The position numbers were made by a program, and so were the translations under genes. A DNA stretch of 64,000 bases from Candidatus Eiseniibacteriota bacterium (GTDB taxonomy: Bacteria; Eisenbacteria; RBG-16-71-46): contig JBGPFC010000005.1 of the NCBI GenBank assembly GCA_041483195.1, positions 1 to 64,000 of the forward strand. Reading direction: 5' to 3'. The notes under the pieces were generated by a model that worked only from the letters and a program-made list of their open reading frames with translations, searched no databases and was not told the origin of the DNA. Below, one piece after another: positions 83-7,359 of this stretch. Positions within the stretch are counted from its first letter, which is position 1, and every line of letters starts with the position of its first letter.

Positions 83-141
83 TCACCCGGGTGGGGAGTT
101 TTCGATGACCGCAGATGGGGAGATTTGGGTGACCGTTGACA
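1..141 (+). mobile_element. Right end of an IS21-family insertion sequence
   Basis: Ends in ...GTTGACA (141); the reverse complement begins TGTCAACGG. It carries two tandem imperfect repeats (reverse complement GGTCACCCAAATCTCCCCA / GGTCATCGAAAACTCCCCA), like IS21 multiple terminal repeats, directly after istB. Confidence 0.8.
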
Positions 142-881
142 AGAAAGGCCAGCAGCTCACGGCGGGCCGCGTGCGTCAGTACCTCGAACCGTTCATGGGT
201 CACTTGCAGCTCGACCGCGTGAGCGGGGAGGATGTGCGGGCGTACCGGCTGTGGGTCGAGCGCAGCACGAAGCTCTCGACCGGGTCCGTGTGGCATCTGC
301 TGGCGGACTGCCGGTGCCTGTTCAACTGGTGCGAGGAGGCCGGGCTCGTGTCGCGGAGTCCGTTTCCGCGTCGGGTGATGCCGAAGCTTCAGGAACGGCT
401 CCCGGATCGGCTGACGGACGAAGAGGCCGAGCAAGTGCGGTGTCTGCCCGAGCCGCACGGGTTCGTGTGTCGGCTGGCGTTGGGCACGGGCCTTCGGTGG
501 GGCGAGTTGTGCCGGGCGCAGGCTTCGGAGGTGGAGCGCGAGTTCCTGCTCGTGCATCACACGAAGTCGCGCAAGGTGCGACGAGTGCCACTGACCGGCG
601 AGCTGCTCGCGGAAGTCCGGCTGCACGTGGGCAGGCTCGTTCCGTTCGCGCGATTGTCGCCGGGTTCGTTCGCGAACTCGGTACGGCGCATGAGCGGCAT
701 CGAGCAGTTTCACGTCCACCAGATGCGGCACACGTTCGCTTGCCAGTGGTTGGAGCGGGGTGGCAATCTCGCCGCCCTTCAGCAAATCCTGGGTCACGCT
801 TCGATCGAGACTACGCAGCGATACGCGCGGCTGAGCGATGAAGTGGTGATGCGGGAGGCGCGGAGGCTGGCGCAAACTTGA
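142..881 (+). pseudogene. Tyrosine recombinase/integrase, N-terminally interrupted by IS21 (ORF 105..881 starts inside the IS end)
   Basis: Catalytic motifs GLRWGEL (R), HQMRH (HxxR) and LGHASIETTQRY (H, Y) are present. The first 12 codons of the ORF lie within the IS terminal repeats. Confidence 0.8.
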
Positions 882-893
882 GGAGGGATAAGC

Positions 894-1235
894 ATGGCGA
901 TCGGTGTTGACTTCAAGAAGCGGAGCGACAGGGGTGGATCGGACATCTGGGCTCCGGTGGCAATGTGTGACGTTTGCGGCTCGGAGATCTCCGATGGCCG
1001 CGCAGGTGTGTACCTGTACGACCAGAAACTAGGAGCATTTCAAGTCCCGACGATCGCTTGTAAGGGCAGTTGCCATGAGAAGGCCGAAAGAGAGATGAAG
1101 GCCAAGGGCGCTTCGGTCGGCTGGATGGAGATGTATGCCTTTGTAGGGATGCTCAAAGGTAACGTGATGCTGAAGAGCACACCTGCTGGCAAGAAGCTCG
1201 CTGACGAAGCGGAGAGCGGGGAGTTGGAGTCCTAA
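894..1235 (+). CDS. Small hypothetical protein with CxxC...CxxxC (possible Zn-binding)
   Basis: GGAGGG RBS upstream, 113 aa, CDVC and CKGSC motifs, visibly lower GC than the flanks. Confidence 0.6.
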   Translation: MAIGVDFKKRSDRGGSDIWAPVAMCDVCGSEISDGRAGVYLYDQKLGAFQVPTIACKGSCHEKAEREMKAKGASVGWMEMYAFVGMLKGNVMLKSTPAGKKLADEAESGELES

Positions 1236-1247
1236 CAACCGCTGCTC

Positions 1248-1270
1248 ACCGTAGCAGAGACCGTAGCAGA
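1248..1270. repeat. Tandem 11-bp direct repeat ACCGTAGCAGA x2 (possible integrase arm-type sites)
   Basis: Copies at 1248-1258 and 1260-1270, about 30 nt upstream of the tRNA. Confidence 0.55.
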
Positions 1271-1299
1271 ACGGGTAGAGCAGGGACGCATCTCGTTGT

Positions 1300-1376
1300 G
1301 GCCCCGTAGCTCAGACGGATAGAGCAGCGGTTTCCTAAACCGCGTGCCACTGGTTCGACTCCAGTCGGGGCCACCA
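1300..1376 (+). tRNA. tRNA-Arg(CCT)
   Basis: Acceptor stem GGCCCCG/CGGGGCC, D arm GCTC/GAGC, anticodon stem GCGGT/ACCGC with CCT at 1334-1336, T loop TTCGACT, encoded CCA. Confidence 0.95.
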
Positions 1377-1414
1377 CTCGAAACGCCACGATCCAGCGCG
1401 AAGGTCGGCCAGCC

Positions 1415-1446
1415 AGAGGGTGTCCCGTGTTCCCGGGGCACCCTCT
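1415..1446 (+). other. 13-bp GC-rich hairpin downstream of the tRNA
   Basis: AGAGGGTGTCCCG-loop-CGGGGCACCCTCT with one G-U pair. No U-tract, so not a canonical terminator. Confidence 0.5.
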
Positions 1447-1639
1447 CAGACTGGCGACAGATAGACAGGCAGGGACGGGAGAGGACGTTGAGGGGGAGAC
1501 CAAGCGGAGGGGCGCGAAAGCGCCCCCATGAAACCCCGACCCCTGTCTGCCCGTAGTGGCACCCTTAGTGGCAACCACCGCCCAGTGCTGCTGAACACGG
1601 GGCCATTTGCGCATCGGAGAGGGGCTCGTTGTGGCCGAC

Positions 1640-3373
1640 ATGCAGACCCGAATGAGCGCGATGCCGCCTCAGGAAGCCCCGCTCCCCACCACGGTCGTGT
1701 CGGCGTTGGTCCAGATGTTCTCCCGCCTGGGAGTGAAAGAGGCGTTCGGCGTCTCGGGTGGCGCGATGGCGGCGCTGTGGGACGCGCTGTCATCCAGCTC
1801 GCTCGGCGTCTATCACTTCCGTCACGAGAACGGGGCCGCGTTCGCGGCCATCGAGGCGTGCTTCGCGAGCGGGCGACCGACCGTCCTGTTCACGACCACG
1901 GGACACGGACTCACCAACGCGCTGACCGGCATCGTGGCGGCTCGCGACGAACGCGCTCGCGTCATCGTCGTCTCCGCGTATACGTCCGCGTCATCGCGGG
2001 GCCGGTTTGCCATCCAGGAGACGTCCCGGAGCACGCTGCCCCCTTCGCTCTACGAAGCCGGGCGTCCGTTTCACTTCGCCTCGATCGTCGACGATCCCAC
2101 GCAGCTCGCCGCAATCGAGCGAGGGCTGGCGGAGGGCCTCGCTCGCCGCAGCGGATTCGTCGCTCACCTCGCGATGGACACCGCGGTGCAGCGGGCGCCC
2201 GCTCCCGAACCGCGGATACTCTCGCTGGCGATTCCGGTGACTGCACAGCCACCGCCGCACGCCGACATCGCAGCCTGCGTCGATGCGCTGAGCGATGGCC
2301 CGTTTGCAATCTGGGTCGGGTTCGGCGCGCGCGATGCCGCCGCCGAGGTCGCGACGCTCGCGCGTCGCATGCGGGCGCCGGTGATGTGCTCACCGCGTGG
2401 CAAGGGGATTTTCCCCGAGAACGACCCGCTGTTCGTCGGTGTCACCGGCCTGGCCGGACACGCTTCGGTGATGCGATATTTGGAGGAGTTCAAGCCCCGA
2501 CGCCTGCTGGTGCTCGGCACGCGGATGGGGGAGCCGACCTCGTTCTGGGACCGCCGCTTCATCGCGCCCGAGGGGTTCGTTCACGTCGACGTGGATCCCG
2601 ACGTGCCGGGCGTCGCGTTCGGCACCGCGCCCACGCTCGCCATCGTGGCCGACGTGGGAGCGACACTCCGGGCGGTGCTCGCCAATCTGCGACCTTCGAT
2701 CGGCGGCGCCACGCCGGAGTTGCCGCGTCCGCGGATCGACCGGGTCGATCGACGCACCGAGGGCCTGGTGCGCCCCGAGGCGCTGATGGACGCGCTCCAG
2801 GATCGGGTCGTCGATCGCGGCAACGCGACGGTGCTGTCGGAGTCCGGCAACTCATTCCTGTGGACGACGCACCGATTGCGGTTCTCGGAGCCGCGCCGAT
2901 ACCGGGTCAGCACCGGTGTGGGGGCCATGGGTCACGCCGCGGCCGGCGTCGTCGGCGCGGCGCTGGCCACCGGGCGAAAGGCGGTCGCGGTGGTCGGCGA
3001 CGGCGCCCTGCTCATGACCAACGAGATCAACAGCGCCGTGAAATTCGACGCGCCCGCGGTGTGGATCGTCCTCAACGATGGCCGCTACGGCATGTGTGCC
3101 CAGGGCATGGACGCCCTCGGGCTCACGGCCGACGCGGAGATCCCGCAGGTCGACTTCGCAGCGTTCGCTCGCGCGCAGGGAGCCCGCGCGGCGCGCGTCG
3201 ACCACGAGGCGCAGCTCGACGGAGCGCTGGCGGAGGCCATGGCGGCCGACGGGCCCTTCGTCGTCGACGTTCGCATCGACCCTCGGAGCAAGGCGCCGGC
3301 GTCGCAGCGCAACGCCGCGCTCGCCGCCAAACTCTCCCTGAATCGCGAGCGGATCTTCCCCGCCGGTCACTGA
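1640..3373 (+). CDS. ScyA-like thiamine-diphosphate-dependent acyloin synthase (acetolactate synthase family)
   Basis: FGVSGGAMAALW, FRHENGAAFAA (catalytic Glu), RGRFAIQETS and the ThDP motif GDGALLM...LNDG resemble cyanobacterial ScyA as recalled. The start could be TTG 1607, ATG 1640 or ATG 1652. Confidence 0.85.
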   Translation: MQTRMSAMPPQEAPLPTTVVSALVQMFSRLGVKEAFGVSGGAMAALWDALSSSSLGVYHFRHENGAAFAAIEACFASGRPTVLFTTTGHGLTNALTGIVAARDERARVIVVSAYTSASSRGRFAIQETSRSTLPPSLYEAGRPFHFASIVDDPTQLAAIERGLAEGLARRSGFVAHLAMDTAVQRAPAPEPRILSLAIPVTAQPPPHADIAACVDALSDGPFAIWVGFGARDAAAEVATLARRMRAPVMCSPRGKGIFPENDPLFVGVTGLAGHASVMRYLEEFKPRRLLVLGTRMGEPTSFWDRRFIAPEGFVHVDVDPDVPGVAFGTAPTLAIVADVGATLRAVLANLRPSIGGATPELPRPRIDRVDRRTEGLVRPEALMDALQDRVVDRGNATVLSESGNSFLWTTHRLRFSEPRRYRVSTGVGAMGHAAAGVVGAALATGRKAVAVVGDGALLMTNEINSAVKFDAPAVWIVLNDGRYGMCAQGMDALGLTADAEIPQVDFAAFARAQGARAARVDHEAQLDGALAEAMAADGPFVVDVRIDPRSKAPASQRNAALAAKLSLNRERIFPAGH

Positions 3374-5536
3374 ATGGAAGACAACACATTCACCACCACG
3401 GTCTACGCCCGGACCCCGGCGGCGCGCGCGTTCGCGTACTTGCGGCGTCTGCAAAACCTCGACGAGTGGACCCTCGGCAGCCGCATGCTCACGCGGATCG
3501 ACGACGACACGTTCATGGGCACGGCGTCTGGCTACCAGGCTGCGCTGTGCTACCACGTGCGCGCGCTCGAGCATCCGCGCATTGCCGCGATCGAGTGGCA
3601 GTGCGGCTACCGCTATCGCGAGTACTTCAAGCAGTATCCGGTATTCGTGTTTCCCTCGCGCTACGCGGGCCCTCACGACGACGAAGACGGCAGCTACATC
3701 CACTGGGTCAGCGTGGTCGATCCCGCACGCCGAACCGCGATGATCATGCAGGGAATCGCGGCCGTGCATCACTATGAAGCGCGAGGACTCAAGGCCGCGC
3801 TCGAACGCGCCGAGGGAATCGCGCGGCCCGCCGAGGGGCGAGTCTCCGTGCTCTCGGACACGATGTGGGTCGATGCGCCGCTCGCGATGGCTCGCGAGGT
3901 GCTCGCCGATCGGGAGGCCCTCGCCAGATGGGCGCCGCTCTTTCGACCCGTCGACGCCGCAGCGGGATCATTCCTCGACGAGTACGCGCGGCGCGTCCAG
4001 GTCGAGTTCGCGGCGTGCGATCTCGGCGACTACGCGCTGGTCGAGCAGGACTACGCGTACCCCGATCTCGGCGAGGTGCAGCGCTGCCCGATCATCCTGG
4101 TGCCGTGCGCTCGAGCCTTCGGCCCGGAGGCGCCCGGATTCCTGCTCCACCGGGTCGCATTCGTACGCAACGACGGCTCGCAGACGCACGGTCGCACGAC
4201 GGCCTCGGATCTGAGCGCGGAGAGCATGGCGATCAAGCGCATGCTCGAGGCGCGCGCGGGAAACCTGACCAGTTTCGCTCGCGGGATGAGCTATCGGCCC
4301 GGTCCCGCGATCACCGATGACGAGATCATGGCGTCACCACCGGACATCTTCACACCCGAGTTCGCCGCGGATCCATACCCACACTATCGCCGAATGCGCG
4401 ACGAATATCCGCTGTACTTCCACGCGCCAACCCGAGCGTGGATCCTCAGCCGCTACGACGACGTTCGCATGGCGCTGACCAACCCGACGTTCACCACCAA
4501 GAGCTACGCCGCGCAGACCGAGCCCCTGCTCGGCAAGACGATCATCCAGCTCGACGGGCGCGAGCATGCGCTGCAGCGCGGGTTGCTGACGCCGTCGTTT
4601 CGCGAGGGGAGCATTCGAGAGCGCTTCTCCGATCTGATCGTCGGCGCCATCGATGAGCTGACCGGCGTGGTCGCCTCCCGCGGCGAGGCGGACCTGATCG
4701 GGGATGTTGTCGTGCACCTTCCTGTCCGCATCATGGCGGGGTTGCTCGGCTTGCCCGCGCAAGACCGCGACCGGTTCCGGACGTGGTACACGGCCCTGAT
4801 TCAGGGCGCACTCAATCTCACCGGTGACCCGGCGGTGGCGGTGGCGGCCACCACCGCGCGGGACGAGCTCGACGCCTATCTGCGGCCGCTCATCGCCGCC
4901 CGGCGCGAGAGCCCGGGCACCGATTTGATCTCCACCCTGGCGACGACCATCGTTGAGGGCGATCGGCTGACCGACGAACAGATCATCCGCTTCGCGATGC
5001 TGATGGTGTTCGCGGGGGGCGAGACCACCGAGAAGGGGCTCGCGACCGTCCTGCGCAACCTGCTCGCACATCCCGACGCACTGGCCGCGGTGCGGCAGGA
5101 CATGTCGCTGCTGCCGCGAGCGATCGCCGAGTCGTTCCGCTACACCGCCCCCACTCACATGGTGCCGCGTCAGACCCGCGAGGAGGTGGAGGTATCGGGT
5201 GGGCTGCTGCCCGCGGGGGCCGAGGTCATGTGCTTCCTGGGCTCGGCCAACCGCGATGAGCGCCGCTTCGCCGATCCCGATTGCTTCGACCTCGACCGGC
5301 CCGAGTCCGACCCCAAGCGCGCGTTCACGGGCGCGGCCGACCACCTCGCGTTCGGCGGCGGCCGGCACTTCTGCCTCGGGGCCGTGCTCTCCCGTTTCGA
5401 GATCGAGGTCGCGTTGACTCGCATCTTCGATGCACTTCCCGACCTGCGACTCAGAGGCGACACGCCTCCGCCCGATGTCGGGCTGTTCCTGCGCGGCCCG
5501 GCGACGCTTCCCGTTCGATTCTCGAGGCGGGCGTAG
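3374..5536 (+). CDS. Fusion: ScyC-like cyclase/decarboxylase (N-terminal ~310 aa) + cytochrome P450 (C-terminal ~400 aa)
   Basis: N-terminal MEDNTFTT, NLDEWTLGSRM, GTASGY, IEWQCG, IHWVSVVDP and MIMQGI match ScyC-type motifs as recalled. The C-terminal half has the I-helix FAGGETT, ExxR (ESFR) and heme motif FGGGRHFCLG. One uninterrupted frame. Confidence 0.85.
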   Translation: MEDNTFTTTVYARTPAARAFAYLRRLQNLDEWTLGSRMLTRIDDDTFMGTASGYQAALCYHVRALEHPRIAAIEWQCGYRYREYFKQYPVFVFPSRYAGPHDDEDGSYIHWVSVVDPARRTAMIMQGIAAVHHYEARGLKAALERAEGIARPAEGRVSVLSDTMWVDAPLAMAREVLADREALARWAPLFRPVDAAAGSFLDEYARRVQVEFAACDLGDYALVEQDYAYPDLGEVQRCPIILVPCARAFGPEAPGFLLHRVAFVRNDGSQTHGRTTASDLSAESMAIKRMLEARAGNLTSFARGMSYRPGPAITDDEIMASPPDIFTPEFAADPYPHYRRMRDEYPLYFHAPTRAWILSRYDDVRMALTNPTFTTKSYAAQTEPLLGKTIIQLDGREHALQRGLLTPSFREGSIRERFSDLIVGAIDELTGVVASRGEADLIGDVVVHLPVRIMAGLLGLPAQDRDRFRTWYTALIQGALNLTGDPAVAVAATTARDELDAYLRPLIAARRESPGTDLISTLATTIVEGDRLTDEQIIRFAMLMVFAGGETTEKGLATVLRNLLAHPDALAAVRQDMSLLPRAIAESFRYTAPTHMVPRQTREEVEVSGGLLPAGAEVMCFLGSANRDERRFADPDCFDLDRPESDPKRAFTGAADHLAFGGGRHFCLGAVLSRFEIEVALTRIFDALPDLRLRGDTPPPDVGLFLRGPATLPVRFSRRA

Positions 5537-6105
5537 TCCGAACGCGCCATCGCCGCGATACACCCCGGTTCGCGCAGCAGGCCGTACGCCCGAGAACCCC
5601 GACGTGCTCCAGCCCGATGGAGCGGTGTGGGCTCGTATCGCGACATCGATCCAAGCAGGCCGCTTCCCTCCCCCGGCCGATGATGAGGCGGGCATGCCAG
5701 TGCATTGGAGCAACGAGCCTACGGAGAACGCTTCATGGCCCGGATCGAGCCGGGCTGGGTTCGAAATGCGGGCACCCCGACGACGATTTTCACGCTCATA
5801 CTCGCAGGGCCGTGGTGCCTCATCCCGTTCATCGGCCTCCGGTTCCTCCTCGTCGATCTCAGCATCCTCCCGCCGATCTGGTGGTGGCTGGTGCGAGGCC
5901 GGACGGACGAGCCGCTGCGAGGGGCGATGGCGAGTTTGGTCATCGGCCCACGCGTTCACCTCGACGAGTCCATGCTTCTGGTCTGCACCGCGAGAGGGCC
6001 GGGGCGCGGCGACGGTGACCAATGGAGGCGGTTGCGCTTACGTCTGCTCCAAGGCGGGTTCACTTGCGTTCTCGCGCGCGGAGCTCCGGAGTTCCGCGGA
6101 TTGTC

Positions 6106-7359
6106 CTACGAGGCGACCGCGCCCTTCGCTTGCCTCAGCAGGTGCGCGAAGATCGCGAGGTAGTCTCGCGCCTCGCGGGGGTGGAGGAAGTTGTCGCGCA
6201 CGTGCTCGCGACCCTCGCGCCCGAGCCGGCGGCGCAGCGCGGAGTCCCGCAGCAGCCGGACGATCTGCAGCGCGCACCCTTCGACCGAGCGCACGAGCAT
6301 TCCGGTGCGCTCGTGGATCACTTGGAGCGGAATCCCGCCGACCGCGCTGGCCACCACCGCGCGCCGCTTCCACAGCGCCTCCGACACGGTGAGCGCGAAC
6401 CCCTCGCGCAGCGACTTCTGAATCACCACGGCGGATCGCCGCTGGAGCGCGTTGATGATGCGGTGGGAATCGGGTGGCAGCGCGAGCAGCGTGACGTCCT
6501 TTCGGCCCCCGACTCGCTCTCGCGTCTCGGCCAGCACCACCGCGCCCTCGGGGTCGTCGTCCGCGGTGCCGCCCGCGAGCACCAGATGCGCCTTTTCGCG
6601 ACGCCGCGCCAGCACGAACGCCTCCACGACGCCCACCGGATCCTTCAAGCGATCGAAACGCGAGACCTGCGTCACCGTCGGCGTGTCGCGCGGCAGGTCG
6701 AACGGCTCGAGGAGTCGGTCCACCTCGTCGTCGGGCAGCTCGAGATTCTTCTCGGAGAGCGGATCGATCGAGGGAGGAGCGAGAAACGCCGGCGTCGCGA
6801 GCGGCGGAACGAACGTCACGTGCGAGAACACGGCGGCGTGAAAATGGTTCACGCGATTCGCCACGAAATCAAGCACGTCCGGATTGGCCCGCGAGAGGTC
6901 GATGTGGCAGCGCCACAGCCAGCGCTGACCGGCCTTTCTCCGCAGCTCGGCCAGCGCGGCCGGCTGGGGATCGTGAATCAGCACCAGGTCGCCATCGAGC
7001 GCCAGCTCCGCGGCCGCGCGGCGGTTCATCTCGTGGAAGTGGTCCATGTCGTCGGCGGTGAGGGACCCCGGGCCGCCGTGCAGGGCGTTGTGAATCGTCT
7101 TTGTGATCTCGTAGAAGCGGGCGTCGCCGGGCATGACCTCCCAGGTGGTGGGAATGCCGAGCTCGTTCAACAGCGGCACCAGCCGGTGAAGGATCTCCGC
7201 CACGCCGCCGCCGGTCGACGTGGAGTTGACCATGGCGATGCGATGACCGTGGAGCGACCGCGCGAGCGACTCGAGCGCGCGCATCGGGCCGTCGCCAATT
7301 ACCGCGCGATAGCCGTCCACCAGCGACGCGCCGTCCGAGCGGGTCTGGACCCGCGTCAT
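6106..7359 (-). CDS. treT: GT4 glycosyltransferase, trehalose synthase TreT-like
   Basis: VNSTSTGGGVAEIL, IHDPQP, WRCHID, QVSRFDRLKDP and QKSLREGFALTVSEALWK motifs. Confidence 0.85.
   Translation of the reverse strand: MTRVQTRSDGASLVDGYRAVIGDGPMRALESLARSLHGHRIAMVNSTSTGGGVAEILHRLVPLLNELGIPTTWEVMPGDARFYEITKTIHNALHGGPGSLTADDMDHFHEMNRRAAAELALDGDLVLIHDPQPAALAELRRKAGQRWLWRCHIDLSRANPDVLDFVANRVNHFHAAVFSHVTFVPPLATPAFLAPPSIDPLSEKNLELPDDEVDRLLEPFDLPRDTPTVTQVSRFDRLKDPVGVVEAFVLARRREKAHLVLAGGTADDDPEGAVVLAETRERVGGRKDVTLLALPPDSHRIINALQRRSAVVIQKSLREGFALTVSEALWKRRAVVASAVGGIPLQVIHERTGMLVRSVEGCALQIVRLLRDSALRRRLGREGREHVRDNFLHPREARDYLAIFAHLLRQAKGAVAS

Follow-up and report, generated by a model that had tools for sequence, protein, structure and literature searches.

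Several enzymatic steps of scytonemin biosynthesis have been reported. Cyanobacterial ScyA joins indole-3-pyruvate to p-hydroxyphenylpyruvate, the scytonemin monomer is exported by ebo proteins, with periplasmic ScyE posited as the dimerising enzyme, and in E. coli carrying scyABC or scyABCDEF the pathway ends at the monomer (PMC6282210, PMC7997468, PMC4870267). The ScyC product is a ketone one oxidation state away from the scytonemin monomer, and an oxidised monomer is known from Nostoc (PMC6282210, PMC4870267). Here we describe a two-gene, three-enzyme biosynthetic unit derived from this pathway, located in a stretch of 64,000 nucleotides (nt) of a Candidatus Eiseniibacteriota bacterium (contig JBGPFC010000005.1, positions 1 to 64,000 of the forward strand; hereafter the window). 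In this cassette scyA directly adjoins scyC, with no scyB between them, and scyC is fused in frame to a cytochrome P450:

1640..3373, + strand: ScyA-like acyloin synthase dependent on thiamine diphosphate (ThDP), 577 amino acids (aa), with its stop codon followed directly by the start codon (ATG) of the fusion
3374-5536, + strand: ScyC-P450 fusion gene, 720 aa, a single open frame without internal stops
3374..4297, + strand: ScyC domain (aa 1-308), matching NF035924, with two tandem SRPBCC/Bet v1-like repeats
4298..4327, + strand: variable linker, 10 aa here, the only place where the model's predicted local distance difference test (pLDDT) falls below 50 (aa 315-317)
4328..5533, + strand: cytochrome P450 domain (aa 319-720), PF00067

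The closest described system is the scyABCDEF and ebo set of Nostoc punctiforme and other cyanobacteria. The cassette keeps the same gene order, with 52-55% identity in ScyA and 45-50% in ScyC, shares conserved columns with it and belongs to a lineage that descends from the scytonemin cluster; it differs in lacking scyB, scyD/E, linked ebo and precursor-supply genes, and in carrying instead a P450 fused to ScyC. Scytonemin variants retrieved by EvoMining also show gene gain and loss around scyA, predicted congeners and some unspecified monooxygenases, but they are cyanobacterial loci chosen for scyA and scyB, and the accessible parts of that report name no P450, fusion or non-cyanobacterial cassette (PMC6939163). 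A 2022 survey of ScyC lists 71 cyanobacterial homologues and one other, from Methylocaldum, with no mention of a P450 in its available sections (PMC9796282). A search of the open full-text literature turned up no paper describing ScyC fused to a P450, a cassette of scyA, scyC and P450, or any link between ScyC and CqsB2. The cassette appears to be a form of the scytonemin pathway that has not been described before, and it brings with it a new P450 family and a new domain architecture.

Two further systems invite comparison. The cqsB and nzs carbazole pathways likewise rely on ThDP-dependent coupling of indole-3-pyruvate (CqsB3/NzsH), on a Bet v1-like cyclase that needs no cofactor and acts at indole C2 (CqsB2/NzsI) and then on a tailoring P450 (NzsA). 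The cassette, in contrast, has no ketoacyl synthase III (KAS III), acyl carrier protein (ACP) or prenyltransferase, its ScyC, built as a tandem repeat, shares about 18% identity with CqsB2, and its P450 is fused to the cyclase whereas NzsA is a separate late hydroxylase. KAS III-like CqsB1/NzsJ and ACP were not found as recurring neighbours in the 22 genome loci and the window, nor among 55 neighbours scanned. CypX (CYP134A1, pulcherriminic acid synthase) is the nearest solved P450 by sequence and fold, but the partner of the cassette P450 is a cyclase, and the host genome, which is 97% complete, has no match to cyclodipeptide synthase (PF16715).

The fused gene and its two domains

The ScyC-P450 fusion is real, conserved and widespread. 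The original prediction, made from the letters of the window, was correct in frame, motifs and positions: the ScyC part closes with RGMSY at nt 4294, next comes the linker PGPAITDDEI, and after it Met319 (nt 4328) begins a P450 with the motifs AGGETT, ESFR and FGGGRHFCLG, the codon of the heme Cys667 lying at 5372-5374. A stop or frameshift at the junction was sought in assembled Logan contigs of public runs, rather than in raw reads, and none was found; contigs of three runs cross the junction without any difference (X3, 3921-4517; X6, 4057-4556; and X2, a possible source of this DNA, 4059-5001), and those of run X5 leave it unbridged. The search for the same architecture that the prediction had called for, in which 8000 candidates of 396-1260 aa were scored for the ScyC domain, yielded 120 clusters, 117 of which also carry the P450 part. 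Identity of the fused homologues ranges from 90% to 52%, the nearest named relatives being Ca. Eisenbacteria metagenome-assembled genomes (MAGs) at no more than 88%, and linker length differs among them. Both halves are under purifying selection in four pairs compared, with a ratio of nonsynonymous to synonymous substitution rates of 0.14-0.21 for ScyC and 0.12-0.17 for the P450.

These results also bear on the view that the architecture is an artefact of misassembly or of the loss of a stop codon, or that the P450 is translated separately from Met319. A methionine is indeed present at the P450 start here, split forms are known (25 of the 101 unique loci for which 300 nt of downstream sequence are available) and three public gene calls cover the P450 part alone. 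However, a methionine within six residues of the P450 start is found in only 23 of 109 scored homologues and is missing in the other 86, the short public calls sit within open frames of 720-811 aa, both parts occur together in nearly all long homologues, contigs of three runs bridge the junction, and the fused genes form a single clade (100/100) spanning several phyla. An artefact is therefore largely refuted already and highly improbable; the short calls may explain why this architecture is easily missed.

The ScyC domain alone scores 401.6 bits against NF035924 (cut-off 400), over model positions 1-310 of 312, and can be assigned to the family on that basis; the whole fusion protein scores 399.3 bits, slightly below the cut-off. 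Its structural model (pLDDT 94) consists of two Bet v1/SRPBCC-like repeats. Among 48,161 chains compared, the top fold match is the carbazole synthase CqsB2 (6ipv; Z 17.5, root-mean-square deviation 2.1, 145 residues aligned; runner-up 13.8), which is matched by residues 1-148, that is, by the N-terminal repeat. Foldseek lists didomain aromatase/cyclases as well, and a HMMER profile search puts CqsB2 at the top, weakly (E 0.46), in the same register as the fold match. Likeness to CqsB2/NzsI was judged by the Bet v1-like fold and the catalytic residues His206, Glu209, Tyr144, Tyr172 and Glu105, among which His206 and Glu209 are the proposed catalytic residues of CqsB2 (PMC7466098). His132 and Glu135 of ScyC fall on these two in the weak HMMER alignment and by the end offset of the structural range, and Tyr88 falls on Tyr144 by a by-eye register only; in 45 ScyC sequences His132 and Tyr88 are invariant and Glu135 almost so. 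The match suggests His132, Glu135 and, by eye, Tyr88 as candidate catalytic residues, and so supplies named positions for probing the ScyC mechanism.

The C-terminal part has the heme-thiolate Cys motif, the ExxR and I-helix motifs and the full fold of the P450 superfamily. Its key residues are Glu550-Thr551 in the I-helix, Glu586 and Arg589 of ExxR and the heme Cys667, and the PTHM typical of the family is conserved after the ExxR/K helix. Of 113 fused homologues scored for it, 112 keep the Glu-Thr pair; the heme Cys motif is kept by 114 of 120, and both are present in all 113 P450-length homologues. It had been predicted that this P450 is of the CYP134/CypX type. The likeness to CypX holds, since CypX/CYP134A1 is the best match in the PDB (3nc3, E 1e-74), but membership of CYP134A does not. 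Family membership requires more than 40% identity, and the two proteins share 32-34% (32% by Foldseek; counted by hand, about 134 identical columns out of 393); the TIGR04538 score is 286 bits against a cut-off of 500; and Thr551 stands where CypX has Pro, a substitution in CypX of the I-helix Thr of the oxygen-activation pair (PMC7731078). Judged by sequence, the cassette enzyme is a new P450 family with CypX as its nearest relative, and the label 'pulcherriminic acid synthase', often found in public annotations of ScyC-P450 proteins, is unsupported.

In the AlphaFold model of the full-length fusion (pLDDT 87.5, predicted template modelling score 0.83) the linker is disordered; the template modelling score hints weakly at a preferred arrangement of the two domains, and five full-length models disagree (pLDDT 78-88). 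For an unfused ScyC and its adjacent P450 (locus L021) complex prediction gave a score of 0.00, with no controls folded, and speaks neither for nor against an interaction.

Distribution and ancestry of the cassette

Loci were drawn from 22 named genomes, metagenomes (the best 80 of 180), relatives and 401 cyanobacterial genomes, a sample skewed to relatives of the query and to deliberately sought cyanobacteria. ScyC was matched in 136 loci, of which 116 are distinct and 71 informative, having at least 1200 nt upstream and at least 300 nt downstream. The P450 type accounts for 43 of the 71: all have scyA upstream of scyC and the P450, and none has scyB or scyD/E. In 27 of them scyC and P450 are fused, and in 16 the same P450 is the adjacent next gene (L013 and L022 are frameshifted, and L013 falls in the fused clade). 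The canonical arrangement scyB-scyC-scyD/E is found in 24 loci, none with a P450, which agrees with the earlier statement that canonical scy clusters are not known for one; the other four (L127, L130, L131 and L136) have neither scyB nor P450. No informative locus combines the P450 with scyB or scyD/E.

The distribution is patchy. Nine of 206 genomes of the host phylum carry the cassette, and none of three other members of the genus does; samples of 401 Acidobacteriota and 401 Pseudomonadota genomes contained no ScyC except in the centre genome, and plasmids gave no match. The hosts are mostly uncultured non-phototrophs (Ca. Eisenbacteria, Acidobacteriota, Pseudomonadota); the named loci are all MAGs, and the P450 cassette was not found in any cultured organism. 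No RNA data set was listed as a carrier among 24 runs. ScyC was formerly treated as a near-diagnostic cyanobacterial marker, and more than 100 sequence clusters of other phyla now pair it with a P450, so that ScyA and ScyC matches alone do not indicate scytonemin.

In a ScyC tree built with care from 39 rows, with distant homologues (several of them on long branches) as the outgroup, the P450 lineage is a single clade (100/99) nested within canonical cyanobacterial ScyC, with the fused clade inside it; the first large ScyC tree had been built in quick mode only. Stem branches are 0.21 for the P450 lineage and 0.30 for the fused clade, and forcing the latter outside canonical ScyC is rejected by the approximately unbiased test (p-AU 0.008). 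The tree reads as a single P450 gain and a single later fusion. We infer that a canonical cluster lost scyB and scyD/E, gained the P450, underwent one fusion and then spread horizontally; given the nested position, scytonemin-type chemistry would be ancestral. The opposite possibility, a P450 cassette ancestral to scytonemin, was hinted at by midpoint-rooted trees and by a ScyA tree rooted on acetolactate synthase, and was dropped because that ScyA root lies on very long branches and leaves monophyly of the P450 lineage unrejected (p-AU 0.33), and because ScyC trees rooted on distant homologues put the lineage inside canonical ScyC.

Pairwise distances of ScyA, ScyC and P450 correlate (Spearman 0.84-0.89 over 30 loci) and their trees agree. 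Since unfused relatives keep the same P450 next to scyC and the trees of the three genes are congruent, a functional link between cyclase and P450 is strongly supported.

The sister of the P450 lineage is a cyanobacterial locus, L136, without scyB, scyD/E and P450. It holds a heme-oxygenase-like gene, scyA, scyC and an RPE65-family oxygenase gene (L136:8275-14052), and is probably another pathway variant. Among the more distant proteins, P0262 (599 aa, probably frameshifted) has a different P450 fragment before its distant ScyC-like part and may represent another, independent joining of a P450 to ScyC; the stand-alone homologues P0244 and P0270 are named from the cultured actinomycete Microbispora sitophila and from an Aquabacterium MAG.

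A proposed pathway and its alternatives

The fused P450 had been suggested to oxidise or dimerise the ScyC product by channelling, a hypothetical property of the fusion, and had been taken as Rosetta-stone evidence on late scytonemin biosynthesis. The latter view did not hold: the P450 lineage is without scyB and scyD/E and is nested as a derived branch in the ScyC tree, which indicates a different pathway, and canonical dimerisation is credited to periplasmic ScyE together with ebo export (PMC6282210). The cassette is a side branch, not the missing late step of scytonemin. This reduced offshoot, in which the cyclase is joined to an oxidising P450, is carried by numerous uncultured bacteria of soils and sediments, and its make-up points towards an indole natural product not yet described and a P450 reaction that would be new.

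The reading that we prefer, at a probability of roughly 55%, is that ScyA and ScyC build a scytonemin-monomer-type ketone, which the P450 would oxidise to a new monomeric alkaloid. Because ScyB is absent, indole-3-pyruvate and an aryl-pyruvate would come from housekeeping aminotransferases; in carquinostatin synthesis indole-pyruvate is also provided by an aminotransferase (PMC7466098). By homology, the ScyA-like ThDP enzyme would then couple the two keto acids to a labile beta-keto acid, and the ScyC domain, with a putative His132/Glu135 pocket resembling that of CqsB2, would cyclise and decarboxylate it to a cyclopenta[b]indol-2-one. In the last and least certain step the P450 may monooxygenate or desaturate this ketone in the cytoplasm, drawing electrons from a host ferredoxin, to give an oxidised monomer of the scytonemin-monomer or nostodione type instead of scytonemin. 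By fusion the P450 would stay close to where an unstable, auto-oxidising intermediate arises, and the module could move as two genes. The host genome holds trpB, 13 class I/II aminotransferase matches and a 73-aa ferredoxin.

In favour of this pathway, the P450 lies downstream of, and fused to, the cyclase rather than ScyA, and it retains the Glu-Thr pair for O2 activation. Among columns conserved in at least 90% of canonical proteins, 168 in ScyA and 97 in ScyC are shared with the fused clade, and 15 and 21 show a fixed difference. Several observations weigh against it. The ScyA-like protein falls short of both curated cut-offs (NF035923, 767.6 bits against 1020; NF035927, 717.3 against 1000), though ScyA is still by far its best family (acetolactate synthase models score 186), the ScyC domain barely passes its own, and the cassette itself encodes neither a redox partner nor a transporter. 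Fixed changes in the fused ScyC, including Y59C, H76Q, Q86K, V87Q, F114V and N286A, may alter the pocket and its substrates. The Glu-Thr pair is also compatible with radical coupling. Finally, in E. coli with scyABC the ketone is converted to the monomer with no dedicated enzyme (PMC4870267), so that plain desaturation would need no P450.

A rival proposal is that the P450 works in the cytoplasm as a dimerase, linking two ScyC products through a radical-formed C-C bond; it would replace ebo export and periplasmic ScyE, and the product would be scytonemin or a closely related dimer. StaP sets a precedent for aryl coupling of indoles by a P450 (PMC7466098), the P450 of the cassette and scyD/E never occur together in the 71 informative loci, and no ScyE-family match (NF033206) over the cut-off was found in the host genome or in four of five other cassette genomes; a tblastn search of the host genome with ScyD/E-like proteins and two or three ebo-like proteins of L135/L137, part of the ebo set, also gave nothing at E 1e-5. 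The mutual exclusion, however, reflects one change in the tree rather than 43 and so carries no statistical weight, and in L136 scyB and scyD/E are missing without a P450, so their loss seems older than the P450 gain. Moreover, the Glu-Thr pair retained is of the monooxygenase type, the fused loci of Eisenbacteria and Acidobacteriota have no linked export genes, and the best-covered runs are sediment metagenomes, where an ultraviolet screen is of no obvious use. We regard dimerisation by this P450 as unlikely. If it were true, two genes would make scytonemin or a similar dimer in non-phototrophs of several phyla, one polypeptide would do the work of ebo and ScyE, and the known block to heterologous scytonemin would be removed, making production in E. 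coli possible.

Distinctly unlikely is an action of the P450 before the cyclase, either replacing ScyB by oxidative deamination or hydroxylating the aryl-pyruvate or acyloin. It would fit the absence of scyB from all 43 P450 loci and from the host genome (best NF035922 match 94.5 bits against a cut-off of 600), and CypX, the nearest characterised relative, has been proposed to N-oxidise an amino-acid derivative (PMC7731078); but scyB can go alone, being absent together with the P450 in L127, L130, L131 and L136, aminotransferases are plentiful, and the fusion partner is ScyC, not ScyA. Slightly more doubtful again is the idea that ScyA and ScyC have changed substrates and that the P450 tailors another scaffold, made for example from two indole-pyruvates or from indole-pyruvate with phenylpyruvate or an aliphatic keto acid. 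The long stems, the 21 fixed ScyC differences and the low ScyA score speak for such a change, and related ThDP enzymes such as NzsH take other acceptors (PMC7466098); against it, most conserved columns are shared, including the residues mapping to the CqsB2 catalytic His and Glu, and the lineage is nested inside canonical ScyC. At only 3.9 kb the cassette is directly expressible, which would offer a route to an undescribed indole alkaloid and a new P450 family of uncultured bacteria.

Surroundings of the cassette and variant loci

Around the cassette the following features were recognised:

105..881, + strand: tyrosine recombinase (PF00589), at the contig end
1300..1376, + strand: tRNA-Arg(CCT), with the cassette just downstream, likewise in L001 and L008
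6106-11400, opposite strand, downstream of the cassette: TreT-like glycosyltransferase, trehalose-6-phosphate synthase-like gene and trehalose phosphatase
62702 onward, to 67769 (G000:C5): trp operon (trpE/G-like, trpC, trpB), some 57 kb away from the cassette along the contig

An open reading frame at 5705-6163 was rejected as a cassette member, having no family and no counterpart in other loci, and a scan of positions 1200-6200 found no promoter or terminator. The cassette stands beside tRNA-Arg(CCT) in three loci, the window and 2 of 25 other loci scanned, each with a neighbouring integrase (window, 1300-1376; L001:248-324; L008:2750-2826); this neighbourhood looks like an integration hot spot. 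Conservation of flanking DNA between L001 and the window ends 42 nt before scyA, and no attachment site was found when sought as a duplicated tRNA 3' end. The tyrosine recombinase is given here as context, any role in moving the cassette being speculative.

Elsewhere the cassette may be accompanied by further genes, neither set of which is present in the window. After the P450, 15 of 39 loci with 3.5 kb downstream carry an optional extension of a single SRPBCC protein, a DUF3108-like protein and a membrane-anchored diheme cytochrome c, often with a PEP-CTERM gene near (L017:12205-15418, L015, L021, L022, L079, L093, L118 and L125), which may serve export and periplasmic oxidation. Before scyA, 7 of 24 loci with 5 kb upstream have a LytS/LytTR two-component pair, at times with a DUF4386 membrane protein (L007, L008, L012, L019, L075, L100 and L141), which could sense or regulate the cassette product. 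In L097 the first two proteins of the extension are fused and no P450 follows scyC. The cyanobacterial MAG locus L016 (10001-12265) lies near the base of the fused clade and combines fused scyC-P450 with the extension; codon 3 of its fused gene is TAG, through mutation or sequence error. The high-GC loci L127, L130 and L131 are another non-canonical variant, without scyB and P450, in which a ScyD/E-like plus GDSL-domain gene, scyA and scyC lie beside trp and DAHP synthase-like genes.

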